Below, one piece after another: positions 21,284-50,844 of a stretch of 64,000 nucleotides of DNA (positions are counted from its first letter, which is position 1; each line of letters opens with the position of its first letter). The stretch is from an uncultured Gammaproteobacteria bacterium. GTDB lineage: Bacteria; Patescibacteriota; Microgenomatia; JALYQM01. The stretch spans positions 204,456 to 268,455 of the forward strand of contig CAYOFQ010000001.1 in assembly GCA_964403585.1 (NCBI GenBank), in the 5' to 3' direction. The notes below the pieces were generated by a model that saw only the letters and a list, made by a program, of their open reading frames with translations, was not told the DNA's origin and did no database searches. Position numbers and translations under genes: made by a program.

Positions 21284-21299
21284 TATACTTACCCCAGAT

Positions 21300-24739: not shown

Positions 24740-24743
24740 CGTT

Positions 24744-27266: not shown

Positions 27267-27322
27267 AGTATATCATTTTAAGCGCATTTACCCGCACCGA
27301 GTTACAGTGTAAAATTCTTCAT

Positions 27323-27835
27323 ATGTCTGAACTGGAAATCGAAGTAACGTATCTGGCCAAATATCTTCCTCCCGGGCTGGAAGAAAGTCCGCATAGTGAA
27401 ATCTACGACAAACTTCTTACCAATGATCCGGTCTCACGAATCCGTTTACGGCAGCAAGATGATACCTACAACCTCACCAAGAAAACCAAACCCGACAGTG
27501 AAGATGCCTCTACTCATATCGAACAAACTATAGAGCTCAGTCAGACCGAATTTGAACTAATGAAAACATTACCCGGACTGGAGTTACATAAGACCAGGTA
27601 TTTTTATGATTACAACGGCCTAAAAATGGAGGTCGATGTCTTTCAGGATAATTTCGAAGGACTGGTAACCGTGGAATGTGAATTTCCCACCAGGCGCGAA
27701 AAAGATACTTTTGTGATGCCGGATTTTTGTTTAGTCGATGTAACACAGGAAAAATTTATCAGTTTTGCCTACGGAACAACCTATGAAGATTTTCAGGACG
27801 TCCTCAATAAATACAGCTATGTTCGTCTCTGTTAA
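27323..27835 (+). CDS. CYTH domain protein (triphosphate tunnel metalloenzyme / CyaB-like)
   Basis: N-terminal ELEIEVTYL resembles the CYTH EXEXK motif; about 170 aa. Confidence 0.45.
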   Translation: MSELEIEVTYLAKYLPPGLEESPHSEIYDKLLTNDPVSRIRLRQQDDTYNLTKKTKPDSEDASTHIEQTIELSQTEFELMKTLPGLELHKTRYFYDYNGLKMEVDVFQDNFEGLVTVECEFPTRREKDTFVMPDFCLVDVTQEKFISFAYGTTYEDFQDVLNKYSYVRLC

Positions 27836-29505: not shown

Positions 29506-29548
29506 TTTGTTGTGTATATACTGAGATAGAAAACTAGGACAATTATAT

Positions 29549-31279
29549 ATGCAACTCAAAAAAATAGGAATTATCGCCGTTTTTCTTTGTCTTATTATTG
29601 GTCTTTACCTCAGATTTTACAAGCTTACAACTGTTCCGGATATGCATTTAGACGAAATGTCGTTTGCCTATACTTCTTATTCGTATATAAAAACCGGGCT
29701 TGATGAATTTGGAAAACCTCCCGGAATTGTTTTTGAATCATTAGGCGATTACAAACTGGCACCATTTGCATTCGCAACTATGCCATTTGCTGCGATATCC
29801 GGGCTCGAGCCAATAACGGTACGATTGCCGTCTGCTTTATTCGGGTTAGGCACGGTGCTCTGTTTATACTTACTGGTAAATAGGCTCTATAAAAACAAAG
29901 CACTCGCTATCACAAGCGCATTGCTGTTGTTACTATCCCCCTGGCATATACTTTTCTCCAGAACAGGCAACGAAGCTTCACTGCAACTTTTCAGTATCAT
30001 TGCCGGAATGTACCTGTGGGCGTTATTCAGAAGCACTGAAAAGAAAAAATATCTCTTTTTATCCATACCGTTATTCTTAATCGGATTATATTCGTATTAT
30101 TCATCATTCGTATTCCTTCCTGCCTTTCTGCTGTTCCTGCCGTTGTTTAATAACAGAGGATCCCGCATCGTACACGCTCTACCCTTTGTAGTTATATCGC
30201 TACTTTTTCTCTTATTCTTTTTAACTCAGCCGACCCAGCGCGTAGGCCAAACCAGTTTTTTTAAGCATGGAGAAGTAGAGGCGTTGGTTACCGAAAGTCA
30301 TAGTGAAGAGAATGGTACGTTGCCGTTACCGATCGTCAGACTAATCCACAATAAATTCACTGTTGGCACGCAGTTATTGATTCGCAATTATTTCCAGCAC
30401 TACACCTACAACTTCCTTTTTCTTGAAGGCGATCCCTCATATGGAAGATACTCGTTACCGTTCCAGGGGCCGCTATACATTTGGATGCTTCCGTTCCTGG
30501 TCATCGGCGTAGGTATAGCATCACATAAAATGATCGTGAACAAACAGTGAATTTACGGATTAATGGTACTCTGGATGGCCATAGGTTTTTTGCCCGATTC
30601 CCTCTCATTCGAAATTTATATTCAGCGAACCTTACTGGTATTACCGGCGTTAGTATTTTTCACTGCTTTGGGGCTCATTTCTACCTACACGTACCTTGTC
30701 AAAAATTTTCCTAAATTTAATCCACAACCAATTTTATATATACTTAGCGCCGGAGTAATGATTGTTTCGCTGGTGCTTTTTTGGGACGCCTATTTTATCC
30801 ACCAGCGGATCCACCAGCCATGGCATCGGCAGGGGTGGGCACATGAATTTATAACAACGTTAAATCAGTTGGCTCCACAATATCCTCAAACAGTCATTGC
30901 CCGGGATTCACATATCCTGTACCTGTTTAATGAAAAGGTTGAGCCTCAGGAAGCACAGCAATTGCTTCGAGGAAATATTTCATCCAACGGCAGTTTCAAC
31001 TCTTTGACTAAATACAAGGACTATTTATTTATGCCAAATGATTGCCCGCTCGCCGGCAAATTAGATGTTCTTTATGTTTGCAACGGCGAAAAAATTCCAT
31101 TCAATAGCAAGGTACAAGCAGTTATCCGCTACCCGAGCAACGTACCGGCAAAAATCTTCATTACCTTTACTGAGCCAACTGCTGAGAACAGCCTAACCAA
31201 GGGTGACCGAATCAGTATTATGGAGGATACGATTAAAGATCCTAAAATCTTATCGGACGAGTATCCCGGTTACTGGTAA
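29549..31279 (+). pseudogene. GT-C glycosyltransferase, PMT/ArnT-like; paralog E interrupted by in-frame TGA at 30548-30550
   Basis: ORFs 29549-30550 and 30563-31279 are in the same frame; the sequence across the TGA (HKMIVNKQ*IYGLMVLWMAIGFLPDS) aligns with conserved KNRKQINAVLPLWWLFIAPIPAA of paralog C. Confidence 0.6.
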
Positions 31280-32836
31280 TTATTTAAATCGTTCCTCAAC
31301 CAATAATTTTCTGAAATTTTTTCGCGCTGTGGTCGGCCGTACTTGTAACCGCTGTATTCTCGAAAAGTCATTATTTAAGCCACCAACTAATCCTTCAAAC
31401 GGCTCGTAAATCGAAAAGTGTCTATCGCTATACTTCTCTGTCTGCGGCAATAGATCTCCCCCGGCCCGTCCGTCCTGATTAGCTCCATAAAACTCCGGCA
31501 CATAGCCATACGTCTTTTTACCATACCAGCTATACAAATACGCCCAGGTAGTATTAATTTCATACGGATTGGTATACGTCGAGAAAGTAAACGGCTGTTT
31601 GTTTGCTTGCTGGTACGTATAATCTATCAGCGCCAGTTGATCGCGCAACGTCGCCTCTTTCTGTATCACAAATATGCTCACTCCTTCGGCTTTGCGCAAC
31701 AGGAGGAATTGCACGTTAATATAGAGCAAAACGCTCAGTAGCGCCACAGTAATTATCCGTCCGGCTACACTCTGCCAGATTGTCACTAATGCAAAACTCA
31801 CCACGATATATACAAGCAGGGAAACGCCCAACAGTGAATGACTCTCACTGCGAGGTTGTAGCAGTTCCACTACCAGCGGTGAAAGCATAATTATCGCCAC
31901 AAAATACTTCGCCTGTTTTGCTGCATACCAAAGAAACGCACCAAGGCTGATGAGAAACAATGCAGCGGCAAAAATCTGGTAAATATCCCAGGGAAGCAGG
32001 GGGAGCGAAATTAGTTCATAGTACACTCGTGAAATAACTTTAAGTTTATCCGCCCAAAACAAACTCCGTTCCGAAAAATCCTGTAAATCCCGACCGGAAA
32101 ATAATCCGCTGCGTAATATCCGCACTTCAGTCAAAATCATTGTCGCAATAGTTAATACATAAAACACGACACCGAGTAGCACCGGCCACGAGGGAACAGG
32201 GAATTCTTTTCTGCGCCGTAAAATAATCACGGCCCCAACAAACATTGCTACCCACAAATAAACAGTATAGAGAAATGCCTGATTCGCCAACCCTAAGAAC
32301 AAAAACAGGAGCGGGATACGATTGTATGCCTGTTCAAAAACCACCCGCCAGTACAGATAGAAAAACACGCTCAAAATAATGGGCACTAACGCCGGATTGG
32401 AAATCCACACACCTGCGTGCACCGGTTGTCCAAATACCGCAAACATAAAGCTTGCCAGAATGCCTACCAGTGTACGTCCGGTAATTTTCTGCGCCAGAAG
32501 AAACACTGGAATGACGGTTAGCGAATTCAGAAAGCTTAACGCTACCGCCACCCAATACGGACTGCCTCCAAAGAGGGTATACAATAACCCGATCAGGTAA
32601 TAATAAAACACCCCATGATACAAAATATCATTCGAGCCGCTCGCCGATGGCCCTTGTATCTTTATGTCACCTTTTTCAAAAATACTTCGCGAAACCGCCG
32701 CGTCCCGCGCTTGATCATAAAAGAAATGCACATCATTATTGGAGATAACCGCCAAACGCACTGCAAAAGCCAAAACCACTAAAGCAATAATAAGTAAGCG
32801 GGTATTAGAGCGAGATATCTTGACCATTTTTTCCAT
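31280..32836 (-). CDS. GT-C-like polytopic membrane protein, divergent subfamily (FFYDQARD loop motif); paralog H
   Basis: About 13 TM helices; N-terminal loop FFYDQARDAAVSRSIFEKGDIKIQGP is paralogous to FLFDQGRDMLDVKEIVVGHHPTLIGP of the 34942 gene. Confidence 0.45.
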   Translation of the reverse strand: MEKMVKISRSNTRLLIIALVVLAFAVRLAVISNNDVHFFYDQARDAAVSRSIFEKGDIKIQGPSASGSNDILYHGVFYYYLIGLLYTLFGGSPYWVAVALSFLNSLTVIPVFLLAQKITGRTLVGILASFMFAVFGQPVHAGVWISNPALVPIILSVFFYLYWRVVFEQAYNRIPLLFLFLGLANQAFLYTVYLWVAMFVGAVIILRRRKEFPVPSWPVLLGVVFYVLTIATMILTEVRILRSGLFSGRDLQDFSERSLFWADKLKVISRVYYELISLPLLPWDIYQIFAAALFLISLGAFLWYAAKQAKYFVAIIMLSPLVVELLQPRSESHSLLGVSLLVYIVVSFALVTIWQSVAGRIITVALLSVLLYINVQFLLLRKAEGVSIFVIQKEATLRDQLALIDYTYQQANKQPFTFSTYTNPYEINTTWAYLYSWYGKKTYGYVPEFYGANQDGRAGGDLLPQTEKYSDRHFSIYEPFEGLVGGLNNDFSRIQRLQVRPTTARKNFRKLLVEERFK

Positions 32837-34874
32837 CCTTAGTGAGGATCGTCCGCTTTAAAGCGCCTTGTTTATCCAGCAAAATAATTGTTCCTCCACT
32901 GTACCCGGCCAGCTGCGCATCATACTGTTTCTCCAGACCCTGTACTCCGTGGTAGTTATAACTACTATAAATCCGTGTACAGCACTCTGTATACGCAGTA
33001 TTAGTGATATGGGTATAGTCGGAGTTGGAATAAATGCGTGCAGGATAAGGAGTAACATAAACACCTTTATACGAAAGTAATTCTTTCTGATCTTCGGCTT
33101 TCAGGTCCTGCCACGTTGTCATCAGCATTGTCGGAACACCCGTTAAACGATTCTGCACATAATAGTCATGAATAACAACCGCCGTAAACCCGGTGAACCG
33201 TTCCAGAACATGCAGCAATTTTTCTTCCTGCTGTACCTCAATTTCATCCGGTCGCACGGAAATAGCAAATCCCTGTTTGTCTTGCACAAGCACATGTCCG
33301 CCTTGCGTAATTGTTCCACGTTTCCCTAAAACCAGTGAAGTTTTAACGGTATCTTCCGGGGAAAAATCCGCCAGTAATAACCCCCAGTTCCATTCCACGC
33401 CCCAGCGGTTATGCACTCGTTTCAGCTGTAACTCTTTCGTTTCGGTAAATGATCCCAAATCCTGCGTATGATACGTCAATTCAACGTTTACTTTCCCGTT
33501 ATCTCCCGCAAATTCCCGTGACACCTCTTTAAATGAAATTGCCCTGACACCGGCATTAAATAAGGCGGTCTTGGCAATTGTCTGAAACATCTCCCGTTCT
33601 GTCGCCTGCACGCTTGAACGGGTTGTGTTTTCCTGGTACACATCAGAGAAAAATTGCTTTGAAAAATTCGTATAATATCCGGCTAATACCGAATCCGGCT
33701 TAGCTGTTAAAAAGCTTGGGGCATACAACAGTAAAATAATAATCGCCATAACAGCCACAGTTCCCGGACCTTGAACCCGACGATAGCCTAATGAAAACTT
33801 GGCAACCAGTAAATAAATAAACGGCAGTACCAGCAATAAGTAGCGGCTGTAAAACGGAATGCGCATGTACATAATAATCGACGCAATTAGGATGAGTGCC
33901 ATTCCTCGCCACACCAGAGTTTCCTTTTTCGAATACAGCACATATACCGCCACGCCTAAGCCGATCGCGCCCAATATCGGCCACAAGTACGTCCACTCAA
34001 TTACCGTTTCCAGGTTACCGGAGTTAACATTCGGCACCTTACCGGTAAATAATGATTGAAGTACTCCCAGCGGATGCAAAGGCAGTTTTGAAATAAGATA
34101 AATCGTCGCGATATATTTATGGAATTTAACCAGTTCAAGTATGCTGTGACCGAGCATAAAATAGCGGGCATACACCAGCAGAACCGCTACACCAAAACCG
34201 GCATAGTAGGCAAAAACCTCTTTCCACCAGCGTTTTTTTACCAAATAAGCTGTCTCCAACAACACCAGGACTGGAAATAATGTCTGCATTTTCGTTTCAA
34301 AGAATAAACACACCGCCGCACCACTCAGCACCGCCAGCCATAATCGCCTTCGTTCACTTTCCACCAGATACACAAAAGCAGACAAGTTCAACAGCAGGAA
34401 AAACAACTGGTAAATATCCAGCCAGGATTTCCAAAGTTGGGAAAAGAACAGGGGATCAAGATAAAACAGTGTCGTCACCAGCAATGCCGCCGACCTGTTT
34501 TTCAAAAGCTTTACACCTAATAAGTACAAACACACTAACGACCCAACACCAGCCAAAAAGGCCATCCACGCCACATTCCCGAACCACTTAATTGAAAAAC
34601 CAACCAGATACAGCGCCGCCGGTGGCTTATCTGTAATCACCAGCGACGGATCATCCCCCTGACTCAAACGGTACCCGGCATGGGCATACAACGCGTCATC
34701 ACCAATCGGGCGCTGGGATAACCGCAGTTGCCACTGCGAATGATCATAGCGATCCTTCCAGTACGCCACATCATACTTTTCACTAAAAGAGGTCCAATTA
34801 TAGGAAAAAATCAAATACGTCTGTATTACCAGCATTACTATACAGAAATAGGGAAGGAGTTTTGCTATTTTCAT
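32805..34874 (-). CDS. GT-C glycosyltransferase (PMT/ArnT-like, DD motif) fused to C-terminal PBP-dimerisation-like domain; paralog F
   Basis: N-terminal membrane domain with IGDDALYAHAGYRL; the C-terminal ~270 aa soluble domain ends with GLEKQYDAQLAGYSGGTIILLDKQGALKRTIL, which resembles the G.EK.YD..L.G..G......D..G signature of the PBP2/FtsI dimerisation domain. Confidence 0.5.
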   Translation of the reverse strand: MKIAKLLPYFCIVMLVIQTYLIFSYNWTSFSEKYDVAYWKDRYDHSQWQLRLSQRPIGDDALYAHAGYRLSQGDDPSLVITDKPPAALYLVGFSIKWFGNVAWMAFLAGVGSLVCLYLLGVKLLKNRSAALLVTTLFYLDPLFFSQLWKSWLDIYQLFFLLLNLSAFVYLVESERRRLWLAVLSGAAVCLFFETKMQTLFPVLVLLETAYLVKKRWWKEVFAYYAGFGVAVLLVYARYFMLGHSILELVKFHKYIATIYLISKLPLHPLGVLQSLFTGKVPNVNSGNLETVIEWTYLWPILGAIGLGVAVYVLYSKKETLVWRGMALILIASIIMYMRIPFYSRYLLLVLPFIYLLVAKFSLGYRRVQGPGTVAVMAIIILLLYAPSFLTAKPDSVLAGYYTNFSKQFFSDVYQENTTRSSVQATEREMFQTIAKTALFNAGVRAISFKEVSREFAGDNGKVNVELTYHTQDLGSFTETKELQLKRVHNRWGVEWNWGLLLADFSPEDTVKTSLVLGKRGTITQGGHVLVQDKQGFAISVRPDEIEVQQEEKLLHVLERFTGFTAVVIHDYYVQNRLTGVPTMLMTTWQDLKAEDQKELLSYKGVYVTPYPARIYSNSDYTHITNTAYTECCTRIYSSYNYHGVQGLEKQYDAQLAGYSGGTIILLDKQGALKRTILTKDGKNGQDISL

Positions 34875-34941
34875 AACTACCTAAGAATAGTACCATTATA
34901 CACAAGTACAGCCTAGGTACTGCCCAAAACGTTGAGAGTAT

Positions 34942-36444
34942 ATGAAAAAAATACTGCAATTCTGCATAAATGAATTCCGGCAGCACAAGCTGGATTATCT
35001 GCTCATACTGCTCATCGTACTCACCTCAGCCTTCTTCCGTTTTAAACCGCTTTTTACCGGAGATTTTGTGTTTCTTTTTGACCAGGGCCGCGACATGCTC
35101 GACGTCAAAGAGATCGTTGTCGGTCATCATCCAACACTTATTGGACCATTCACTGGTATGAAAGGGTTATTCCAGAGCCCGATGCATTATTACCTGTTAG
35201 CCATTCCTTTCATACTCACCGGAGGTCACCCGGCGGGAGGCATCGCCTTTACCATTATCACGTTTTTGGTTGGCATAACCCTGGCCTATGTTTTGGGTAA
35301 ACGCATGTACGGACGCCTTTTTGGACTATTTTTCGCCCTCATTTTTGCTTTTGCCCAAGGCTCAATGAGCAATTCCGCTAATTTCTGGAATCCTAACTGG
35401 ATCCCGCCGCTCATGGTGCCCTATTTATATTCGTTGTATCGCAGCAGAAAAGACCTTCGCTGGTTGCTCGCCGTCAGTTTTCTCGTAGGGTTGATGTCCC
35501 AGTTCGAAGCCGCCTTTGGCGTCATGCTGCTTATTTCAACCCTGTTGTTTTTACTCGTCTCATATCCGAAAGTATTCATCTCCAAATGGTTTTATCTCTC
35601 CGGCATCGCCTTTGCGATCAATTTTATACCGCAGGTCCTTTTTGACATCCGCCATGAGTACATGATGACCAATACCTTAGTCAATTTAATCACCGGTCGA
35701 ACCGAATCCTTGGGTATACCAATCCCATTCGATGTCCGCTTCTGGTACCGCATCGATGAAGTAACCAAAGCCACCATTTTTACAATACTCTACGATCGAA
35801 CACTCGCCCTGACAACACTTATCCCGATTCTTGGCACCCTCATAATTGCCGTTAGGAAAAAAGACTGGTCGACCATCAAAGCCCAACTGTTCTTTGCCGG
35901 CATTCCCTTCTGTTTGTTCCTCGTTTTCCTGGCCTTTCCACTTCCCGCCTGGGCGTGGTACTGGACGGGTCTACAAGTTTGCTACTATGCCCTAGTTGCG
36001 TATTCCTGTGCCTATCTTTGGCACTTCCATAAATTCGCCAAAGTTCTCGACGCCCTATTGCTCGCTCTCTGGGTAGGCTTGGCCACCTTCCCGGCCTTTA
36101 TTCCTTCCAACATGCCCGAAGAACCGGGAACCTTCAAAACCCAAGTTAAAATTATGGACGATATCTACGCCGATGCCGCCGGAGAACCGTTTGGTGTTTT
36201 TGTTTACACTCCTCCCATTTATGACTTCGCGTTCAAGTATTTGTTCTGGTGGCGGGGCATCACTAAATACAATTATGTTCCAACCGACTCCAAAGACGGC
36301 ACGTTCTATTTAATCATTGAACCCAACAAAGACAATCCACTCGCCATCGACGGTTGGAAAAAGACAGTCATTAAAGAAGGACAAACCGTCTGGACCAAAA
36401 AATATCCGGGAGATATTGAGGTAGAGAAGAGACAGGGGAAATAA
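34942..36444 (+). CDS. GT-C-like polytopic membrane protein, divergent subfamily (FLFDQGRD loop motif); paralog I
   Basis: About 12 TM helices plus a C-terminal soluble domain; paralogous to 31280-32836. Confidence 0.45.
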   Translation: MKKILQFCINEFRQHKLDYLLILLIVLTSAFFRFKPLFTGDFVFLFDQGRDMLDVKEIVVGHHPTLIGPFTGMKGLFQSPMHYYLLAIPFILTGGHPAGGIAFTIITFLVGITLAYVLGKRMYGRLFGLFFALIFAFAQGSMSNSANFWNPNWIPPLMVPYLYSLYRSRKDLRWLLAVSFLVGLMSQFEAAFGVMLLISTLLFLLVSYPKVFISKWFYLSGIAFAINFIPQVLFDIRHEYMMTNTLVNLITGRTESLGIPIPFDVRFWYRIDEVTKATIFTILYDRTLALTTLIPILGTLIIAVRKKDWSTIKAQLFFAGIPFCLFLVFLAFPLPAWAWYWTGLQVCYYALVAYSCAYLWHFHKFAKVLDALLLALWVGLATFPAFIPSNMPEEPGTFKTQVKIMDDIYADAAGEPFGVFVYTPPIYDFAFKYLFWWRGITKYNYVPTDSKDGTFYLIIEPNKDNPLAIDGWKKTVIKEGQTVWTKKYPGDIEVEKRQGK

Positions 36445-36458
36445 TAAATTTAGTAAGG

Positions 36459-36464
36459 TATAAT
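36459..36464 (+). promoter_or_regulatory. -10-like hexamer TATAAT 7 nt upstream of GTG 36472
   Basis: GGTATAATCTCCACA-GTG with no SD. Confidence 0.3.
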
Positions 36465-36471
36465 CTCCACA

Positions 36472-38103
36472 GTGAAGAAATTTCTATTCTGCACCATTCT
36501 TATACTCGCAATTGCACTCAGGTTCTACAAACTTGGCGTCGTACCCGGCTCACTCGATTGGGACGAAGTCTCCCTTGGTTACAATGCCTATTCATTATTA
36601 CTCAACGGCACCGACGAATACGGCAATACCTGGCCCTTATCCATTCGCTCATTCAATGACTACAAACCGCCTGCCTATGCCTATTTGGACATCATCCCGA
36701 CTGCCATTTTCGGTTTGAATGAATTTGGCACCCGCTTTCCGGCAGCGTTCTTTGGTTCACTCGCAGTGATTGGGGTATATTTTCTCACCAGAGAATTATT
36801 TCGCAATGAATCCAAACTCCCGCTTATCGCCATGTTTATTTTCGCCATCTCACCCTGGCACTTACAGTTCTCCCGCGCGGCCTTTGAAGGCAACATCGCC
36901 GTTTTCTTTGTAATTTGGGGAATGTATTTTCTCCTACGCTGGTTTCGCAATAACAAGCTGTATGAACTATTACTTGCCGCCGGACTGTTCGCCGGATCAC
37001 TCTACGCCTACCACGCCGCCCGCCTGATCGTTCCGTTGTTACTCTTCGGCGTAGCACTGAGGTACCGAAAGCACTTTTTAGCCCGAAAGCAATCCGTACT
37101 TACCGCGGCCGCCCTCGGTATAATTTTAGTTCTTCCAGTTGGTCTCACCTTAATTCGCGGCAGTGCCTCTGAACGGTTCTCTTCAGTCAGCATTTTTAGT
37201 CCGACGACCGAAATTCTTCGTCCGCTGGAATATGAACGCGAAGACAAAGCCACGGTGAACTGGAATTCCTGGTTACACAACCGCCGAATCGAATACGTCA
37301 AGGAATTTGTCGAAGGCTATGTTAATCATTTCAGTCCGGTGGCGATGTTCATGAAGGGCGACGTTGTCGAACGGCACCATGCTCCCGACATGGGATTATT
37401 TTATGTTATTGAATTACCGTTTATTCTAATCGGCATCTTTACCCTTATTGAAAAGAGATTTAATTATAAATTCCTGTTCTTCTACTGGGCGGCCATTGCA
37501 CCGCTACCTGCGGCTATCTCAACCGGCACGCCCCACGCCATTCGCAGCATTTTATATTTACCGCTCCCGCATATCGCCATCGCAGTGGGAATTTTCCAAA
37601 CGTATCAATTCATGACACAATATTTTAAGCAACCTAAATTCAACACCAGAACTCCCGCTATAACCATCGGAATTATCTTCGCGCTCTATCTCGGCAACTT
37701 TGCCTATTATCTCAATCAATATTATGGACATATGAACGTTGAGTATGCCGAATACTGGCAGTACGGCTACAAGGATTTAGTCGAGTATCTCCGACCAATT
37801 GAAGGTAAGTACGACAAGATCGTCGTAACTCCTGCCTACGATCAGCCCTATATTTACTTCCTCTATTACAAACAATACGATCCCCGGGTTTGGATTAATA
37901 ATGGTGAATTTAATAAAGGTTTCGATAAATACGAATTCCGCAAAATGGACTGGTATCAGGATCGCAAATTGCATAACACCCTATTAATAGGGGATAAGCT
38001 GGAAATTCCGGAGGGCGAAGCCGGAACCATTAAAGTGTTGCGCTATCCCGAAGGAACCAAAGGAAACCGGGACATTTTCAGGATCATTCCCTCGCAATAT
38101 TAA
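36472..38103 (+). CDS. GT-C glycosyltransferase, PMT/ArnT-like; paralog G
   Basis: GTG start; LDWDEVSLGYNAYSLL, SPWHLQFSRAAFEGNIAVF, FYVIELPFILIGIFTL, YWAAIAPLPAAISTGTPHAIRSI and YGYK C-terminal domain; TATAAT 7 nt upstream. Confidence 0.7.
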   Translation: MKKFLFCTILILAIALRFYKLGVVPGSLDWDEVSLGYNAYSLLLNGTDEYGNTWPLSIRSFNDYKPPAYAYLDIIPTAIFGLNEFGTRFPAAFFGSLAVIGVYFLTRELFRNESKLPLIAMFIFAISPWHLQFSRAAFEGNIAVFFVIWGMYFLLRWFRNNKLYELLLAAGLFAGSLYAYHAARLIVPLLLFGVALRYRKHFLARKQSVLTAAALGIILVLPVGLTLIRGSASERFSSVSIFSPTTEILRPLEYEREDKATVNWNSWLHNRRIEYVKEFVEGYVNHFSPVAMFMKGDVVERHHAPDMGLFYVIELPFILIGIFTLIEKRFNYKFLFFYWAAIAPLPAAISTGTPHAIRSILYLPLPHIAIAVGIFQTYQFMTQYFKQPKFNTRTPAITIGIIFALYLGNFAYYLNQYYGHMNVEYAEYWQYGYKDLVEYLRPIEGKYDKIVVTPAYDQPYIYFLYYKQYDPRVWINNGEFNKGFDKYEFRKMDWYQDRKLHNTLLIGDKLEIPEGEAGTIKVLRYPEGTKGNRDIFRIIPSQY

Positions 38104-41022: not shown

Positions 41023-41026
41023 AACG

Positions 41027-41098
41027 TACCCTCGGTAGGAATCGAACCTGCATCAACAGCTTAGGACGCCGCTGCTCTATCCGTTGAGCTACGAGGGC
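41027..41098 (-). tRNA. tRNA-Arg (anticodon CCU)
   Basis: Manual fold on the minus strand. It has a 7-bp acceptor, U8, D-arm GCTC/AACGGATA/GAGC, anticodon loop GTCCTAA (CCT) and T-arm GCAGG-TTCGATT-CCTAC, which is close to E. coli argW. CCA is not encoded. There is one T-stem mismatch and a G1-U72 wobble. Confidence 0.6.
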
Positions 41099-41724: not shown

Positions 41725-41866
41725 AATACCAGAATAATAAATGGAAATAATAATAGCAATACTTAACAAGGACGCATTATCCATTAAAAAACTTGCTCTA
41801 AGAAAAAGTTAATGATATCATTGATATACTGTCTAATTACAACAATAGTATAAAAAAGGAGTTTAT

Positions 41867-43613: not shown

Positions 43614-44675
43614 ATGAAAATAGCCATCGACACCTCCCCCTTACACAACCTCAACGCCGCCCGCGGTGTCGGCATGTACACCCGGCAGCTCGTCGAAGGG
43701 CTGTCCAAACTAACCGACGGAAACGAGTACCTGCTGGTAAAAGATGAAGTCGAACTTCAAAAAATAAAACCGGATCTCATCCATTATCCTTTTTTCGACC
43801 TCTTCTTCCGCACCCTGCCTAAAAGAGGGGATCTACCGGTCGTAGTTACCGTGCACGACGTGACGCCATTGGTACTACCCGACCTGTTCCCGCCCGGAAT
43901 TCGGGGGAAAATTAAGCTCTATCTGCAAAAAAAGAATTTACAATCGGTGGACAAAATCATTACCGACTCCCAGTGCTCCAAAAAAGACATTGCCCGGTAT
44001 TTGGATATCCCGTTGGATAAGATTGAAACCGTTTATCTGGCTTGCGATCCGGTCTACCAGCGGGAAACAGACGCTCAAAAGCTGACCGATATCAAAACGA
44101 AGTACAATCTCCCGGAAAAATATATTGTGCGGGTAGGCGATATCAACAAACATAAAAACTTTCATGCCCTGTTTGACGCGTTAACCAGAACCGACCCGGA
44201 TATTCACCTGGTGCTTGTCGGCAAAGCGCTCGGCGAGGACGCACCCATGATCGCCGAACTGCAGGAGATAGTCGAAGATATTCAAAACTTCAGTTTACAA
44301 AAACGGGTTCACAGGCTGGGCTTTGTACCCACTGAAGATATGTCAGCCATCTATACTGCAGCCCGGGCAACTATGCATAATTCATTGTATGAAGGATTTG
44401 GGTTAACTGCTCTAGAGTCCCTGCATTGTGGCACGCCTGTGATTGCCGGGGATACCGGAAGCCAGCCGGAAATTGTCGGTAACGCCGGATTACTCGTCAA
44501 TCCTTACGACGTAAACGAAACAGCCGGTGCTATTGAAGAAATATTTGCGTTTGACGAAGCAGTCTATAAAACATTACAAGAAAAAAGCATACAGCAAGCT
44601 AAAAAATTCTCGCTTGAAAAAATGACTCAGGAAACAGTCGATGTCTATGAATCTCTCCAAAGAAACCGTAATTAA
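43614..44675 (+). CDS. glycosyltransferase family 4
   Basis: EX7E region EGFGLTALESLHCGTPVIAGDTGSQPEIV. Confidence 0.7.
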   Translation: MKIAIDTSPLHNLNAARGVGMYTRQLVEGLSKLTDGNEYLLVKDEVELQKIKPDLIHYPFFDLFFRTLPKRGDLPVVVTVHDVTPLVLPDLFPPGIRGKIKLYLQKKNLQSVDKIITDSQCSKKDIARYLDIPLDKIETVYLACDPVYQRETDAQKLTDIKTKYNLPEKYIVRVGDINKHKNFHALFDALTRTDPDIHLVLVGKALGEDAPMIAELQEIVEDIQNFSLQKRVHRLGFVPTEDMSAIYTAARATMHNSLYEGFGLTALESLHCGTPVIAGDTGSQPEIVGNAGLLVNPYDVNETAGAIEEIFAFDEAVYKTLQEKSIQQAKKFSLEKMTQETVDVYESLQRNRN

Positions 44676-45999
44676 AATTGTCAAACATCCATTTTTTCAG
44701 GGAAGCGCCATTGCTTTTGTCGGATCTTTTGGCGTCAATGCCTTGAGCTATCTGTACAACGTCGTCATCGGTCGAATGCTGGGCGTTGTCGGATACGGTG
44801 AATATTTATCGTTGGTTTCAATTTTATATATCGCTTCTGTGCCATCAAATGTTTTGGGCACTGTCGTAACTAAATATACTGCAATTTTCTCTTCCCATAA
44901 TGAAAATCTGAAGATAAAATCCATGCTTATTAAGATGACTCAGTATTCGTTCATTTTTTCCCTGGCATTTATTCTCATTCTGACTCTATTTCAGAATCAA
45001 ATTATAGCGCAGCTAAAACTAAACCAGTTTTTATCATTGTTTTTAATTGGCCTTATATACACCTTTTCGTTTCCGCAGACAATTTTAAACGGGGCTTTTA
45101 CCGGCTTACAAAAGTTCGTCGCGGCCAGTGTCTATGGAGCAATACTGGTGTCGGTACGAATTATCTTAGCGGTACTTTTTATACTCCTCGGGCTCTATGT
45201 CAATGGAATTCTCTACAGCATGATTCTTTCCGCCATCATGGTCGTTCTTTTATCCTGGATCTCAATCTCCAATAGCATCGACGGAACAAAATTTTCCGTA
45301 CAGCAAAGTCTGCTGCAAGTCGGAGAATTTATCAAAGGAATAATAACGTTTTCACCACAAGCCACGCAGGGACTGATGCTTAATAAGGAATTACTCACCT
45401 TTGCAATGTTCACTGCCTTCAATAACTGGGGACTGGGTAGTTTAGTGCAAACAGACATTATCCTGGCTAAGGCATTTTTAAGCCCATACGATGCCGGGTT
45501 GTACTCTTCACTCGCAATTACCTGCAAAGTTATTCCGTTTTTTACACAACCCCTGGTCATAGTTATGTTCCCGCAAATTGTCCAGCGGGTTGCACAGAAA
45601 AAAAACTTCATGCCGTTATTTGCGGCCGTACTCGGAGTTGTAACACTAGGTGCCGGTTTCGTTACCGCAATATATATATTCTTCCCCCAATTGGTCATTA
45701 CCTTACTGTTCGGAAAAAAATTTCTGGAAGCTGCACCGTATATTGGAATCTTTAGTCTTGCTCAAATGGCCTATGCCATTCTTAACGTCTTCTCTTTCTT
45801 TTTCCTTTCCATCGGGAAAAATAAAACTGCGTCGTTGGTGCTGATTGCTGCAGTAATTCAGGCAATCGGTATTCAACTATTCCATAGTTCCTTAACTCAA
45901 ATTATTATGGTATCAATAGTAGTGATAGGTGGCTGCGTTGCGCTCTATGCGGCGCTAACACTGCAATTCTATTTCAAAACACAAACGCAAAAAGTATGA
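44641..45999 (+). CDS. MOP/PST-family flippase (Wzx-like polysaccharide biosynthesis protein)
   Basis: 452 aa with about 12-14 TM helices and a Wzx/MurJ-like layout; sits between glycosyltransferase genes with overlapping start/stop. Confidence 0.55.
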   Translation: MSMNLSKETVIKIVKHPFFQGSAIAFVGSFGVNALSYLYNVVIGRMLGVVGYGEYLSLVSILYIASVPSNVLGTVVTKYTAIFSSHNENLKIKSMLIKMTQYSFIFSLAFILILTLFQNQIIAQLKLNQFLSLFLIGLIYTFSFPQTILNGAFTGLQKFVAASVYGAILVSVRIILAVLFILLGLYVNGILYSMILSAIMVVLLSWISISNSIDGTKFSVQQSLLQVGEFIKGIITFSPQATQGLMLNKELLTFAMFTAFNNWGLGSLVQTDIILAKAFLSPYDAGLYSSLAITCKVIPFFTQPLVIVMFPQIVQRVAQKKNFMPLFAAVLGVVTLGAGFVTAIYIFFPQLVITLLFGKKFLEAAPYIGIFSLAQMAYAILNVFSFFFLSIGKNKTASLVLIAAVIQAIGIQLFHSSLTQIIMVSIVVIGGCVALYAALTLQFYFKTQTQKV

Positions 46000-46772
46000 A
46001 AATTTCTGTAATTATTCCCGCCTACAGACAACAAAAGACCATCATCGAAGACATGGGACACGTGCAGGATGTCCTTGAGCAGTTGCGTTACGACTACGAA
46101 ATGATTATCGTAAACGACGGAAGTCCGGACAAAACGTATGAGAAATTACAGGAATTCCACGACGAATATGCTAAACCGAAATCAAAAGTAAAAATTCTCA
46201 CGTATAGTAAAAATAGGGGAAAAGGGTACGCGGTACGCTATGGCATTTCTAAAGCCACCGGAGAATATATCGCGTTTATTGACTCGGGAATGGATTTAAA
46301 TCCCAACGGCCTATCCATGTTAATCGAACACCTCGAATGGTATAAAGCGGATATTGTAGTCGGATCCAAAAGACACCCCGCGTCGAAAGTAGAGTACCCG
46401 TTCCTACGCCGCGCCTACAGTTTTGGCTATCAGATGATGTGTGCCATACTTTTTGGGTTGAATGTAAAAGATACCCAGACCGGAATGAAAATTTTCAAAA
46501 GAGAAGTACTTGAGCGGGTTATGCCCCGCATGCTCATCAAAGCCTTTGCTTTTGACATTGAAATGCTCGCTGTAGCTCATCACCTGGGATTCACAAAGAT
46601 CTATGAGGCTCCTGTCGAGTTGCGCCACGATTTCACTAACACCAGTATTAATAAAAAAGTCGTGTTCAATATGCTCTGGGATACGGTTGCAGTGTTTTAT
46701 CGCATGCATATACTGCATTATTACGACGAAAGTAATAAAGAAAACTGGTTACAAAACCAGTTTGAAGAATAA
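45996..46772 (+). CDS. glycosyltransferase family 2, polyprenol-phosphate sugar synthase-like (DPM1/GtrB/ArnC-like)
   Basis: ISVIIPAYRQQKTI...IIVNDGSPDKT...FIDSGMD in a compact 258 aa soluble GT2. Confidence 0.65.
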   Translation: MKISVIIPAYRQQKTIIEDMGHVQDVLEQLRYDYEMIIVNDGSPDKTYEKLQEFHDEYAKPKSKVKILTYSKNRGKGYAVRYGISKATGEYIAFIDSGMDLNPNGLSMLIEHLEWYKADIVVGSKRHPASKVEYPFLRRAYSFGYQMMCAILFGLNVKDTQTGMKIFKREVLERVMPRMLIKAFAFDIEMLAVAHHLGFTKIYEAPVELRHDFTNTSINKKVVFNMLWDTVAVFYRMHILHYYDESNKENWLQNQFEE

Positions 46773-46773
46773 T

Positions 46774-47889
46774 ATGAACATTCTCTGGTTATCATGGAAA
46801 GATCCTACTCACCACGACGCCGGCGGCGCTGAAATTTCGGGTGAACAGCACGCTATTGCCTGGACCAGAGCCGGTCACCATGTCCACTGGGTAAGCATTA
46901 ATTATCCGGGCAGTCAGTCTACGGTAGTCAAAGATGGCGTCGAGTACGAACACGTCGGCCAAAAATGGATGTGGTTTCTGGGGCTTATTCATCTTTTTTT
47001 CTGGTTTAAATGGGTAACACACTGGAAGAATCGGTATGACCTGATTGTGGATGAAATACACGGGCCACCACTCCTGACGCCATTATATATTCGAAAACCC
47101 AAACTGGTAATTATTCACGAAGTGGCGGGAGATATCTGGAAAAAAACAGTGCCGTTCCCGATAAGCTGGATAATGCAATATTGTGTCGAGCCGCTTTTCT
47201 TTAAAGCGTACACAGATGTTCCCATCATCGCCGGTGCACAAACGACAATTGACGACCTTAAAAAAATAGGCATACCTGAGCAAAATATTCATTTCATCCC
47301 GTACGGGGTTACTATCCCGCAACAGAAGCAAACCTTTCCGAAGGAAACACAACCTACGCTTGTATTCCTCAGCCAGCTCCGTCCGATGAAAGGCTTTGAT
47401 CGTGTCTACGAGGGATTTAAAAAAATACAGCAAACTATTCCTGATGTTAAGTTATGGGTGGTAGGCGACGATAGTCTTCCGTATGGCCAGGAAATGAGAC
47501 AAAAAGTACTTTCAGAGCAAAAAAATGAGAACGTAACATTTTTTGGGAAAGTAAGTCAGGAGAAAAAATTCGAGTTGTTACAGCGTGCCCACGTTTTAGT
47601 GCACGGTTCATATAAAGAGGGCTGGGGGCTGGTGGTTATCGAAGCCAACGCAGTAGGCACTCCATCGGTTGTGTATGACGCTGCCGGGCTGCGCAACAGT
47701 GTGCACCACGCAGTCACCGGGTACATTGCCAAAAATACCGAGGAGTTCGCTCAGTATGGTATACTGCTCCTCGGTAATCAAACCACTTATGAGCAATTTC
47801 AACAGCACGCGAAAGAGTGGAGTGCTCAGTTCTCCTGGGAATCTGCCACCAGAGCTTCGCTCGAATGTATTGCCCAAATCACCAACTAA
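46774..47889 (+). CDS. glycosyltransferase family 4
   Basis: EGWGLVVIEANAVGTPSVVYDAAGLRNSV EX7E motif; start at Met 46774, 2 nt after the upstream stop. Confidence 0.65.
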   Translation: MNILWLSWKDPTHHDAGGAEISGEQHAIAWTRAGHHVHWVSINYPGSQSTVVKDGVEYEHVGQKWMWFLGLIHLFFWFKWVTHWKNRYDLIVDEIHGPPLLTPLYIRKPKLVIIHEVAGDIWKKTVPFPISWIMQYCVEPLFFKAYTDVPIIAGAQTTIDDLKKIGIPEQNIHFIPYGVTIPQQKQTFPKETQPTLVFLSQLRPMKGFDRVYEGFKKIQQTIPDVKLWVVGDDSLPYGQEMRQKVLSEQKNENVTFFGKVSQEKKFELLQRAHVLVHGSYKEGWGLVVIEANAVGTPSVVYDAAGLRNSVHHAVTGYIAKNTEEFAQYGILLLGNQTTYEQFQQHAKEWSAQFSWESATRASLECIAQITN

Positions 47890-47952: not shown

Positions 47953-50844
47953 ATGTTATTTAAACTTCGCGCATATAAGCACTATTTGTTTATTGTCCTC
48001 GCACTGGTCATGATGGGAGGATCTACACCGGCATCAGCCCAGGGGTCAATGACTGCTGAAAACCACGGTGAAGTCCGGATGTTTACGACCGTCCGCATCT
48101 TAAAAAACAATGCTCCGTTGCCAAAAGCCGATGTGGCTTTTGCCAATCAAAGCCGCACTACCGATCAACAGGGCTTTGCGACATTTGAAGACATTCATAC
48201 GGGGCAGTATCCGGTTAAGGTTTACTATAATGGCATTACCTATGATAACTCAATCAAAGTTCAAAATGCGCCATTAACAATTGATGTGTCCAAGAACGGT
48301 CCGTTTTCCCTGGATTCCGGACTGATGATGTTGTCTATACTTATCGCGGCTGCATTAATCATCGCTCTGGCAATTTATAACAATAATCAGGCCAAGCGTG
48401 CGAGTATTCAACCACAAACCAGCACCCGCAAATTAGCCTTTGGTGCACTGGTTTTTGTCCTGGTCTTAGCATTCATCATTACTATTGCAACGTACCAGAA
48501 CAACATCATCGCCGCATTATTTAATGCCAATAATGCCAATCAATCACTCGCCGCTGAACTGGACACAATTCCCAAGCCAACCAACGTTAAAATCTATGGC
48601 GATGACCGGGTGGCAACCGTAACCTGGACACCCGTGTCCGGTAGCAATGTGGTTGGATACGTTGTCAAATGGGGCAAAGAGAGTATTGGATCCTTTACCG
48701 ATATGAAACAAACGATCCACCCGATCACGCAAATCCAGCCACTGGAAAATGGCGTTAAATACATCGTCCAGGTCCAGTCGGTGCAAGGCAGCTATACCTA
48801 CAAACCAACCAGTAGTGAGCAGGGAGGCAATGATAAATTCGCTACTGCTAACGGCAACGTTTCCTTGCCGGTTGTCGCTAGCGTTATACCGACCAGTCAA
48901 CGCGTCGATTCTATGCGCAAAAGGCTCACCGGATTTTTTGACGATATGAACATCTCTGCCGGCGGTTTTGATGAAACGAAATGGAACCATGCCGTCAATG
49001 CCTGCGTCGCCGTTGGAGAGGACGGACAGTTTATAAATAGCCAACTACACGGACATAATATGACAGCCTCCGGGTTTTGTGACCGGGGTGGTACCGTATC
49101 GCGGGCGCGGGGAGTATTCGACATCACCGGACGCACCGAAGCCGATCCTGGAGTAATTGAATTTGATATCGACGGTGTATCACAACCGCGCGATGTCTGG
49201 TACATCGACCTTATTCCGACCGATGCCCGCAAAAACGGCATCCCGGTTGACGTAACCAGTCACAATGACCTTTTTGACGCCGATAGCGCCGATCCCGGGA
49301 GAATGATTCGTATCGCGCAATTACAAAACGGCACCGCCTCGTTAAATTTTCATTACTTTGGAGTAACTAATCAACCGGGGTCATTTGGATCGGCCAATCT
49401 CAATGTTAATATGGCGACTAAAACTCCCGGTTATGAATTTATGTCACCGGTAAACTTTCCCGTAGATACCGTTATTCCGAACGTCCGCCGGCACTGGAGA
49501 ATTGAATATTCACCAACCAAGTTAAAGGTATATATCGATGCCGTTAAAGTTGGCGAAGGAACAGTTCCGTCACTATTTGCCACTATTAAAAAATATCATG
49601 TACATTCAACACTTTTCTCGTACAATACGGGTAAACAATTCGACACGGTCGGCCCAACCACATCAATGTTGCACTGGGATAATTTTGGATTCAACGGCCC
49701 GGCACCAACGCTCGTTACTCACAATTATCTTGATGGTGGACCAACCGGCACAACGCCATTATTGGCCAGAGGAACCAAATCTGCACCCATCCCAACCGGC
49801 AACCGGACAACCAAAATTCCAATCCCTGATCCGATCGGAACTCCGGTAGGTAAAGTCCGCTTAATGTATACAGCACAACCATTCGGCTATAGTTATTATT
49901 ACTGGAATGTAAATAATTCAATTACGGTGAATGGTAAAAAATACAGTGTGCCGGATCCCCAACAGAATATACAGACGAGCGTATCTAAGGATAACGTCTC
50001 CATGACTAATATTCCGCACGCCACCGGTATTTATATTGAACCTGCCGACATCAAACAGGGGATGAATGAAATATCCTTCAACCTTAACACCGATATTCTA
50101 AACGTTCATCTCGAAGTGGACTATGAAAATAACAACGCACCGAACTATACGCAACCCAAAGATGTTTTTGCGAACTTCACCGGCTACGTTACACCACCGA
50201 TGAATGCTAACGATGCCTACTGGTTTGTTGAGCAAAAGATGGGCTTAGAAAATTTAGCAAACCCCGGAGCCTCACTGCCTCCAACTCCATCAACGACACC
50301 TGCCGCATCAGGCACTCCTCAGGCGACTCAGACACCAAGTCCATCTCCAAGCAGAACTCCGAGCCCAATACCGGCTACAGACACGCCTGCTCCAATAGTA
50401 GCTTCAACCCCAACACCTTCACCACTCTCCAGCAGTAGCACTGGGTCTGTCCTGACTATTTATGCTGCCGGAACTCCGGCTCGCGGAATCTATCCAACCT
50501 TAGTATTGAATATTAATAACAATGGTACGCGGACCAACGTTGCAACCTTTACCAACGTCAACGGCAATCCGAATTCCGGTCAATTCAACACCTTTACTTA
50601 TAAATCAAATACAGAACTCGTACCAGGCCAGATCCGGGTACGATTTACCAACGATTATTACAATCCCCAAACCGGTGAAGATCGTAATGTCCGGATTAAC
50701 AAGATCAGTATCGACGGTCAGGAGTATCTTAGCTCTACGCCTTCAGTTTATTCAACCGGTACCTGGGCGGCTTCCAACGGGTGTGCAGCCGGATATAAGC
50801 AGTCGGATTGGCTGATGTGTAACGGGTACTTTCAGTATAAGTAG
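47953..50844 (+). CDS. large cell-surface protein (signal peptide, CarboxypepD_reg-like domain, 2 TM segments, FN3 domain, Pro/Thr/Ser-rich linker, C-terminal CBM-like domain)
   Basis: Signal peptide MLFKLRAYKHYLFIVLALVMMGGSTPASAQGS; FN3 region PTNVKIYGDDRVATVTWTPVSGSNVVGYVVKW; low-complexity PPTPSTTPAASGTPQATQTPSPSPSRTPSPIPATDTPAPIVASTPTPSP; C-terminal beta-sandwich-like GQIRVRFTNDYYN...RNVRINKISIDGQEY. Confidence 0.55.
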   Translation: MLFKLRAYKHYLFIVLALVMMGGSTPASAQGSMTAENHGEVRMFTTVRILKNNAPLPKADVAFANQSRTTDQQGFATFEDIHTGQYPVKVYYNGITYDNSIKVQNAPLTIDVSKNGPFSLDSGLMMLSILIAAALIIALAIYNNNQAKRASIQPQTSTRKLAFGALVFVLVLAFIITIATYQNNIIAALFNANNANQSLAAELDTIPKPTNVKIYGDDRVATVTWTPVSGSNVVGYVVKWGKESIGSFTDMKQTIHPITQIQPLENGVKYIVQVQSVQGSYTYKPTSSEQGGNDKFATANGNVSLPVVASVIPTSQRVDSMRKRLTGFFDDMNISAGGFDETKWNHAVNACVAVGEDGQFINSQLHGHNMTASGFCDRGGTVSRARGVFDITGRTEADPGVIEFDIDGVSQPRDVWYIDLIPTDARKNGIPVDVTSHNDLFDADSADPGRMIRIAQLQNGTASLNFHYFGVTNQPGSFGSANLNVNMATKTPGYEFMSPVNFPVDTVIPNVRRHWRIEYSPTKLKVYIDAVKVGEGTVPSLFATIKKYHVHSTLFSYNTGKQFDTVGPTTSMLHWDNFGFNGPAPTLVTHNYLDGGPTGTTPLLARGTKSAPIPTGNRTTKIPIPDPIGTPVGKVRLMYTAQPFGYSYYYWNVNNSITVNGKKYSVPDPQQNIQTSVSKDNVSMTNIPHATGIYIEPADIKQGMNEISFNLNTDILNVHLEVDYENNNAPNYTQPKDVFANFTGYVTPPMNANDAYWFVEQKMGLENLANPGASLPPTPSTTPAASGTPQATQTPSPSPSRTPSPIPATDTPAPIVASTPTPSPLSSSSTGSVLTIYAAGTPARGIYPTLVLNINNNGTRTNVATFTNVNGNPNSGQFNTFTYKSNTELVPGQIRVRFTNDYYNPQTGEDRNVRINKISIDGQEYLSSTPSVYSTGTWAASNGCAAGYKQSDWLMCNGYFQYK

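Follow-up and report, generated by a model that had tools for sequence, protein, structure and literature searches.

We have analysed a stretch of 64,000 nucleotides of contig CAYOFQ010000001.1 (the window), in which a large gene on the forward strand encodes a modular protein that is predicted to be exposed at the cell surface. The open reading frame (ORF), of 963 aa at 47953..50844, has the extent and length given in an earlier reading of this DNA (the original prediction), which proposed the protein as a candidate substrate of O-glycosylation. The most informative part of the protein is its middle domain, left unnamed at that time, for which we describe here a predicted fold of the glycoside hydrolase family 16 (GH16) type. 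The features of the gene are the following:

47953..48039, + strand: predicted signal peptide, aa 1-29, with cleavage between ASA and QG (read from the sequence)
48070..48288, + strand: small prealbumin/CarboxypepD_reg-like beta-sandwich, predicted extracytoplasmic, aa ~40-112 (Pfam PF13620, sub-threshold)
48313..48495, + strand: predicted transmembrane (TM) hairpin, with TM1 at aa ~121-143, a basic cytoplasmic loop at aa 144-158 and TM2 at aa ~159-181
48574..48867, + strand: fibronectin type III (FN3) domain, aa ~208-305 (Pfam fn3 and model)
48868..49752, + strand: GH16-fold beta-jelly roll of an uncharacterised family, aa ~306-600 (AlphaFold and Foldseek)
49753..50268, + strand: second part of the core, a beta-sandwich (aa ~610-730) and short helices, ending in the family motif FVEQxMGL
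50269..50448, + strand: Pro/Thr/Ser-rich low-complexity linker, candidate O-glycosylation region, aa 773-832 (16 P, 12 T and 14 S)
50449..50844, + strand: module of carbohydrate-binding module (CBM) family 60 and stop codon, aa 833-963 (Pfam PF16841)

The N terminus (MLFKLRAYKHYLFIVLALVMMGGSTPASA followed by QG) has the n/h/c layout of a Sec-type signal peptide, with a basic n-region, a hydrophobic core of 13 aa and an AxA site, in agreement with the signal peptide claimed before. The two TM segments are equally apparent as Kyte-Doolittle maxima over 19 aa (2.79 for TM1 and 2.94 for TM2), separated by the K/R-bearing loop NNNQAKRASIQPQTSTRK, and two to three hydrophobic segments precede the core in 31 relatives as well. 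We infer an extracytoplasmic topology from the signal peptide and from the TM pair with its basic loop, which would place both the N-terminal sandwich and the C-terminal part of 780 aa outside the cell, held by the TM hairpin. The CarboxypepD_reg-like character of this sandwich could be recovered only in part: PF13620 matches weakly here (aa 51-103, E 0.0013, 19.5 bits vs. a cut-off of 32.3) and better in five relatives, for which the Pfam scans gave E values of 4e-6 to 4e-7. The N-terminal module has also a weak pairwise similarity (24.6% over 134 aa) to one anchor protein of the Saccharibacteria, of the kind described below. The FN3 domain that follows the hairpin, likewise expected from the original prediction, is found by Pfam fn3 at aa 208-285 (28.3 bits vs. 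a cut-off of 25) and is a beta-sandwich in the AlphaFold model (model strands 21-114); the family profile matches the FN3 domains of titin and fibronectin in the PDB.

The conserved unit of the family consists of FN3 and the ~470 aa behind it, for which Pfam has no match. The AlphaFold model of aa 190-776 (predicted local distance difference test, pLDDT, 92.9; predicted template-modelling score, pTM, 0.92) contains the FN3, a beta-jelly roll, a further beta-sandwich and short helices, and GH16 laminarinases and lichenases top the list of PDB structures that Foldseek retrieved with it. A second model restricted to the jelly roll (aa 305-600, from an alignment of 115 sequences, pLDDT 94, pTM 0.92) gave a sharper picture, with the first ~33 PDB matches all belonging to GH16 (E down to 1.6e-9, TM-scores of 0.55-0.69, ~11% identity) and with lectins and lyases ranking below them. 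Domain annotation, which the original prediction had proposed as a check, thus gave a family to the C-terminal domain (CBM60), while the middle one has no Pfam match and its GH16 fold comes from the model.

At the sequence level the relationship is much fainter. Pfam detected no Glyco_hydro_16 in the protein at E values up to 1, no NCBIfam model matched the core, and the family profile recovered no GH16 catalytic domain among the PDB sequences, only the FN3 and dockerin parts being matched. An hhalign comparison with the Bacillus subtilis lichenase whose sequence is identical to 3o5s had a probability of 4.5%, yet it is topologically coherent and may be taken as a topological hint only. It pairs FFDDFN..DExKWN with FFDPFN..FWQ and RRHWxIExSPTKIKxFIDG with YHTYAFDWQPNSIKWYVDG. 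The likeness to GH16 enzymes such as ZgLamA (4bpz), the Bacillus lichenases (1gbg/3o5s) and, more generally, laminarinases, lichenases and carrageenases resides in the common beta-jelly roll, in these two motifs, which echo the GH16 patterns FFDPFN..FW and HTYxxxWxPxxIxWYVDG, and in the frequent modular association with CBMs in both groups. The family described here shares only ~11% identity with GH16 and differs from it in the replaced ExDx(x)E strand, in a beta-sandwich that is always added at the C-terminal side, in the FN3 that usually precedes the jelly roll, and in a conserved set rich in Arg, His, Tyr and Lys.

The conserved set was defined as the residues kept in at least 90% of the 115 sequences, which are 26-79% identical to the query. 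In the first half of the jelly roll these are R317, FFDDF328-332, WN344-345, N362, Q364, H366, H368, R378, R384 and R386, followed in the middle by D405, D407, G408, R413, WY416-417, D419, D433 and R453, and towards its end by N510, R512, Y557, K561, HWDNFGF574-580 and Y592. About 30 of the near-invariant residues are polar or aromatic (Arg, His, Asp, Tyr, Lys and Asn among them). Their alternation along at least six strands points to a single conserved face of a sheet. The strand E-F-D-I-D-G (IEFDIDG) is ExDxE-like in the close relatives, and in the distant ones hydrophobic residues take the place of its Glu. In the second part of the core, the motifs IPIPD, ARLMFT, VNG, NVHxExDY and YTQP are conserved in both alignments used (A1 and A2). 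Taken together, the core appears to be an offshoot of the GH16-type fold that has diverged strongly and conserves a different surface. It is not to be filed as GH16, since it has the fold and lacks both the catalytic motif and the sequence membership.

The C-terminal beta-sandwich, originally described as resembling CBMs, is a member of CBM60 by sequence comparison: PF16841 covers aa 834-934 (E 6.7e-16, 59 bits vs. a cut-off of 28.2, profile positions 2-90 of 91), and the solved CBM60s 2xfd and 2xhh match aa 883-962 at E 3-4e-7, including the C-terminal WLxCNGY. CBM60 modules, for which a calcium-dependent binding of xylan, galactan or glucan is typical, are found in enzymes acting on plant-type glycans. 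The module at this locus matches the family model (vCBM60) end to end and above its cut-off but, unlike the known cases, it is joined to an uncharacterised core rather than to a xylanase, and its host is a Patescibacteria-like genome.

Between the core and CBM60 lies the linker, which has the length and the composition previously described for it. Pro, Thr and Ser account for 42 of its 60 residues (70%, vs. 16% in all the ORFs of the window), 26 of them being Ser or Thr, an enrichment with a binomial p of 3e-20 (7e-16 when corrected for all windows). An origin by tandem repetition was discarded, as there is no DNA tandem repeat in the linker. Among the 130 relatives that extend beyond the core, 54, from many phyla, have a 30-aa window with at least 60% Pro/Thr/Ser at the same position, and in the relatives inspected the linker begins immediately after the FVEQxMGL end of the core. 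Because comparable tracts occupy the same junction in these relatives, the linker is, on sequence grounds, a generic inter-module tether of the family across many phyla.

The family itself is rare. Scanned exhaustively with HMMER, a set of 1.84 billion cluster representatives (50% identity) yielded 151 members at E up to 0.001, and a word-indexed search found 45 homologues of the protein. With one genome per species we obtained 130 loci, of which 80 were kept for the study of neighbourhoods. The 130 loci belong to Saccharibacteria (with more than one copy in a genome), Dojkabacteria, Roizmanbacteria, Chloroflexia, Saprospiraceae and Lysobacterales, and also to Bdellovibrionia, Myxococcales, Planctomycetota, Verrucomicrobiota and one Cellvibrionaceae isolate. 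One metagenome-assembled genome of Saccharibacteria, CAZJWS01, has at least five copies on separate contigs (loci L013, L015, L016, L024 and L034), and at several loci (L007 and L010) two copies are in tandem, which suggests a lineage-specific expansion in this group.

A way to approach the role of the core is to consider the modules with which it is associated, for which 94 family members were scanned with Pfam (in sets of 45 and 49). The core is the only candidate catalytic module in 92 of the 94, the other partners being non-catalytic: FN3, Big_7, Big_13, Big_3_3, dockerin, PA14, CBM60, CBM4_9, malectin, GLEYA, CHRD, CarboxypepD_reg and the sorting tail of the type IX secretion system (T9SS). 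The two remaining members are giant proteins with an added SGNH/GDSL esterase. One of them is P0127 (2228 aa); both combine the core with the esterase, BNR/sortilin-like repeats, Ig domains and a purple-acid-phosphatase N-terminal domain, and they are the sole cases among the 94 in which the core stands beside a known catalytic domain.

Dockerins appeared in 17 of the 45 and in 5 of the 49 members; Pfam found none in the window protein. At four loci of Saccharibacteria (L007, L008, L010 and L016) two dockerin repeats form the C terminus of the family proteins, and the gene that directly follows encodes an anchor made up of a signal peptide, a cohesin, a TM segment and, in many cases, a CarboxypepD_reg-like domain. 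A fifth locus, L011, has the same anchor gene. Cohesin PF00963 scored 27.4, 24.2 and 22.2 bits in anchor genes (vs. a cut-off of 24.1) and was not detected in those of L008 and L016. The regions with dockerin proteins and anchor genes, taken from the cohesin/dockerin scans, are:

L007, 9842-17280
L008, 9887-14990
L010, 8759-13727
L016, 1420-5429
L011, 35-832

Judging from their domains, these pairs look like minimal surface-display units, made of an enzyme with dockerins and an anchor with a cohesin, and our literature search found no specific account of cohesins or dockerins in Saccharibacteria. The arrangement is shared with the cohesin-dockerin display of cellulosomes, and its outcome would be the presence of the core at the surface, as for the window protein. 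Unlike in that system, the latter has a direct anchor in the TM hairpin of its own N terminus, which is preceded by the CarboxypepD_reg-like sandwich, an arrangement that about 30 relatives have as well. Surface display of the core appears thus to be a common theme, by a fused anchor in the window and by cohesin-dockerin pairing in Saccharibacteria.

We propose that the protein is a surface-displayed enzyme acting on glycans, a reading to which the predicted domains and the model lead us to give an even chance. A core joined by Pro/Thr linkers to swappable CBMs, dockerins and secretion tails has the signature of a catalytic module, and the number of invariant polar residues fits one too. The whole protein would follow the logic of modular carbohydrate-active enzymes (catalytic module, linker and CBM), with the unusual addition of a direct TM-hairpin anchor, and the two esterase-bearing members may echo the multi-catalytic habit of such enzymes. 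In the proposed mechanism the hairpin would hold the protein in the cytoplasmic membrane with all the soluble domains outside the cell, and FN3, the GH16-fold jelly roll and the beta-sandwich would be the conserved functional unit. The core would act on a glycan as a hydrolase, a lyase or a transglycosylase with non-canonical catalytic residues, for which D405/D407, H366/H368, R384/R386, Y557/K561 and the HWDNFGF strand are candidates. The 60-aa Pro/Thr/Ser tract could serve as a flexible, extended tether, so that CBM60 grips a polysaccharide while the core works on the same one.

Several observations weigh against this proposal. No Glu is conserved in the jelly roll at the level of at least 90% of the 115 sequences, and since the GH16 glutamates are not conserved the known mechanism of GH16 is absent. 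The hhalign alignment (with its 4.5% probability) places the catalytic GH16 strand E-I-D-I-E on M-I-R-I-A. Among the Foldseek matches there are also lectins (the A-domain of Aap/SasG, a legume lectin) and the pseudo-glucanase Rv0315, and the conserved Asp, Asn and His could equally fit a metal-dependent sugar-binding site. Finally, no conserved operon partner that could hint at a substrate was found in the 80 loci.

Two more specific enzymatic assignments were considered. A canonical GH16 hydrolase was discarded because no catalytic Glu is conserved. A lyase similar to polysaccharide lyase family 7 (PL7), whose signature comprises R(S/T)EL(R), Q(I/V)H and YFKAG(V/I)YxQ in that order, had been raised by the motifs QxH and YxxxK, as QxHxH and YxxxK are both present in the conserved jelly-roll set. 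The fold ranking gave it no support: alginate lyases appeared at ranks 10 and 14 with the multi-domain model, with root-mean-square deviations of 19-20, and were outside the top 50 in the domain-only search.

The same set of structural matches raises the alternative of a surface adhesin that would bind a glycan on a host cell, a prey cell or a particle, its core being a lectin-type module without catalytic activity. CBM60, PA14 and malectin would in this case add avidity, and the linker would be a stalk. The concanavalin-like fold is common to the lectins retrieved by Foldseek (Aap/SasG A-domains, Ulex lectin, LamG and a phage receptor-binding domain), and the absence of the GH16 glutamates from the core would be expected of a binding module. 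Legume lectins have metal-dependent sugar sites built with Asp, Asn and His, which the conserved residues of these types resemble. The distribution of the family, multi-copy in the episymbiotic Saccharibacteria and present in Bdellovibrionia, Myxococcales, Lysobacterales and Saprospiraceae, and the common occurrence of Ig-like and FN3 stalk modules point in the same direction. However, in the jelly-roll-only search every lectin was outranked by GH16 enzymes, and ~30 near-invariant polar residues across phyla exceed what a lectin site usually needs. CBMs, dockerins and T9SS tails are, besides, typical appendages of enzymes, and in none of the 94 members is the core accessory to a known glycoside hydrolase or lyase domain. 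The Aap/SasG L-type lectin A-domains and Rv0315 do resemble the core in being concanavalin-like domains of surface proteins devoid of GH16 catalytic residues, but they rank under GH16, have no sequence similarity to the core and are not joined to CBMs or dockerins. We consider an adhesin the main alternative and, on balance, rather less likely than an enzyme.

Another source of hypotheses is the genomic neighbourhood, for which we used the called genes of the identical public contig together with Pfam. The gene follows a run of glycosyltransferase (GT) genes:

43614..47889, + strand: co-directional run GT4 / Wzx-like flippase / GT2 / GT4 (Pfam, called genes)
43614-44675, + strand: GT4 (Pfam, called genes)
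44647-45999, + strand: Wzx-like flippase (Pfam, called genes)
45996-46772, + strand: GT2, 258 aa (Pfam, NCBIfam, called genes)
46774-47889, + strand: GT4, 371 aa (Pfam, called genes)

When the longest ORF is read (46603-47889, 428 aa) the separate GT2 at 45996-46772 is masked; the GT4 starts at 46774. The gap between the end of this GT4 and the start of the gene is 63 bp, within which we found neither a terminator on the + strand nor a consensus promoter, so that co-transcription with the upstream run is possible judging from the sequence. On the 3' side there is a convergent SDR gene, followed by GT2, PIG-L, a small gene and EamA. The position that had been described for the gene, among glycosyltransferases and with GT2 and PIG-L downstream, is accordingly correct. 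The label of donor-synthesis operon given to the upstream run is a putative one: the GT2 at 45996-46772 does resemble most the polyprenyl-phosphate-sugar synthases (PgfS, ArnC, PpgS and AglJ), but at 69 bits or less it is far under the curated NCBIfam cut-offs of 325-529.

These glycosyltransferase neighbours recur in a single other locus, L002 (CAZHTP010000003.1), and in none of the other 79. In L002 the protein is 65% identical to that of the window, the flanking genes are 65-85% identical and synteny extends over ~18 kb. The genome of L002 is labelled as an uncultured Gammaproteobacteria, but the gene content and the labelled GT-C relatives indicate Patescibacteria and the label is probably wrong. 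No other neighbour family recurred across the 80 loci, with the exception of the cohesin genes (at the five Saccharibacteria loci), generic response regulators and RmlB-like genes. As the linkage is found only in L002, the family as a whole does not have this glycan-biosynthesis context, and we rejected it as a clue to family function.

Along these lines, the protein might be an extracellular processing step of the adjacent GT4/Wzx/GT2/GT4 pathway, that is, a GH16-like transglycosylase or trimming enzyme that would remodel or attach the cell's own surface polysaccharide, by analogy with the XTH and Crh transglycosylases of GH16. It is the last gene of a co-directional run, separated from it by the short gap already described with no + strand terminator; the arrangement is kept in L002, and a membrane anchor would keep the protein at the site of polymer export. 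Nevertheless, this linkage is missing from the other 79 loci and no neighbour family recurs, L002 is too closely related for its synteny to weigh much, and CBM60 is known from enzymes that target plant-type glycans. We regard this possibility as improbable.

Further upstream the window contains a conspicuous concentration of membrane glycosyltransferases:

21225..38103, mixed strands: cluster of GT-C (PMT/PMT_2) paralogues, hypothetical glycosylating enzymes (Pfam)

The density of GT-C paralogues in this region is exceptional. Seven genes located 10-27 kb upstream of the gene have Pfam matches to PMT or PMT_2, and in six of them a DE motif lies just after TM1; in the remaining one (34942-36444) FDQ replaces DE. 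The paralogues share a second motif, (G/A)xDE(Y/F/E/H)G, ~17 residues past the first DE, and an additional GT-C-like gene at 31280-32836 has YDQ in place of DE. The 333-aa ORF at 29549-30550 (+) corresponds to the N-terminal half of a PMT/PMT_2 GT-C with the DE motif present, and 12 bp after it there is a membrane ORF of 238 aa without Pfam match (30563-31279, +). The two may represent a single GT-C gene interrupted by a frameshift or a stop, or else a two-part enzyme. The relatives of these paralogues are named "glycosyltransferase family 39 protein" or "phospholipid carrier-dependent glycosyltransferase", and the labelled ones come from Patescibacteria, e.g., Gottesmanbacteria and Levybacteria, for which reason the window most probably belongs to a genome of the Patescibacteria/CPR type. 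All the paralogues were under every curated NCBIfam cut-off (Agl23-like up to 45 bits vs. 126, ArnT 19 bits). Two single GT-C sequences had no match in the PDB, and a profile of 38 GT-C sequences matched only ArnT (5ezm, E 0.003) among the solved GT-C enzymes, and not Pmt1/2. The DE motif occurs in ArnT-type enzymes too. Since the paralogues reach no curated model and match only ArnT, a protein acceptor cannot be inferred, and what they glycosylate could be a protein, a lipid or a polysaccharide.

It is against this background that the proposal of the original prediction has to be weighed, namely that the protein is mainly an acceptor of O-glycosylation, with the clustered GT-C enzymes moving a sugar from a polyprenyl-phosphate donor made by the GT2 to Ser/Thr of the linker and of lipoprotein tethers. 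The linker is predicted to be extracytoplasmic and offers 26 Ser/Thr in 60 residues. The three 40-aa windows richest in Pro/Thr/Ser among the ORFs of the window are the linker and tracts of two lipoproteins, all in predicted exported proteins. The original prediction had placed such stretches just behind the lipobox in both lipoproteins. This holds well for the one at 1992-2591 (a 60% Pro/Thr/Ser tract directly behind the lipobox) and less so for that at 39733-40398, where the proportion behind the lipobox is modest (~36%) and the richest tract (40%) is C-terminal. The presence of seven PMT/PMT_2 paralogues, six with the DE motif, and of a GT2 resembling polyprenyl-phosphate-sugar synthases two genes upstream also speaks for an acceptor, as do experimental precedents in other bacteria. 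A GT39 of Cellulomonas decorates a GH6-linker-CBM2 enzyme with as many as 65 hexoses (PMC11727336), and in Caldicellulosiruptor bescii the deletion of a single GT39 encoded near celA abolishes the glycosylation of multi-domain enzymes (PMC6151902). The architecture of C. fimi CenA/Celf_3184, C. flavigena Cfla_1896 and C. bescii CelA, a core followed by a 60-70-aa S/T/P linker and a CBM, is like that of the window protein, and GT39-type genes are present in those genomes, in C. bescii near the substrate gene. Unlike the window protein, those enzymes have known GH modules, are secreted rather than TM-anchored and have demonstrated glycosylation.

On the other side, the linker is generic to the family across phyla, and the glycosyltransferase linkage is seen only in the sister genome L002. 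The GT-C enzymes match no curated family and cannot be assigned to GT39, their profile touching in the PDB only ArnT, an enzyme with a lipid acceptor. The GT2 reaches 69 bits where the cut-off is 500, and a distance of 10-27 kb separates the gene from those of the GT-C enzymes, whose orientation is mixed. Our literature search found nothing specific on protein glycosylation in Patescibacteria. We found no evidence for glycosylation that is particular to this protein, and that the protein is mainly an acceptor seems to us to fall somewhat short of an even chance. By analogy with the cases cited, glycosylation of the linker is a plausible idea, not new in kind, and that it is carried out in vivo by one of the GT-C paralogues is, in our estimate, slightly less probable than its contrary. 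It would be compatible with the surface enzyme that we propose, as O-glycosylation by a GT-C paralogue would stiffen the linker and shield it from proteases.

Some other genes of the window deserve mention. Inside the GT-C cluster, 32805-34874 (-) encodes an unusual fusion of 689 aa, in which ~8 predicted TM segments within the first 400 aa are combined with a PBP_dimer domain at the C terminus (PF03717, E 7e-12) and in which we detected no transpeptidase domain. A tRNA-Arg(CCT) at 41026-41098 (-) lies between two lipoprotein genes and the ORF 41089-41784, whose 3' end it overlaps by 10 bases. The gene at 59716-61671 (+) encodes 651 aa, with a signal peptide, two C-terminal TM segments and no Pfam match, and is conserved in L002, while that at 62249-63748 (-) encodes a multi-TM protein of 499 aa, also without Pfam match. 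Both flank a GT4 (58562-59719) and may belong to an envelope-glycan theme.

Putting the enzyme reading and the glycosylation of its linker together leads to a broader and more tentative proposal, which as a whole we consider rather unlikely. The core would found a new family of carbohydrate-active enzymes with a GH16-type fold and glutamate-free catalysis, displayed at the surface by a TM anchor or by cohesin-dockerin pairing, and with the linker a protein substrate would be identified for the first time for the expanded GT-C repertoire of Patescibacteria. Catalysis would perhaps be an Asp/His-based hydrolysis or a Tyr/His/Arg-based lysis of an anionic polymer, and the glycans that Patescibacteria would process with the core could come from hosts, prey or detritus.

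The genomes of Patescibacteria are tiny and their cell surface is poorly understood, and to our knowledge few of their large surface proteins have a functional assignment. The acceptors of their many GT-C paralogues are not known, which makes the question of glycosylation worthwhile; for this purpose the window protein and the neighbouring lipoproteins are reasonable reporters, and no more. The GH16-fold family and its two modes of display are more informative than the glycosylation of the linker. It is a rare family spread over many phyla, without a Pfam model or a solved relative and yet confidently modelled. The pairs of cohesin and dockerin genes in Saccharibacteria would be a simple system of surface display. 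If the core is an enzyme, it would represent a new CAZy-type family with a non-canonical active site and a pointer to the polymers that are processed at the surface of Patescibacteria.

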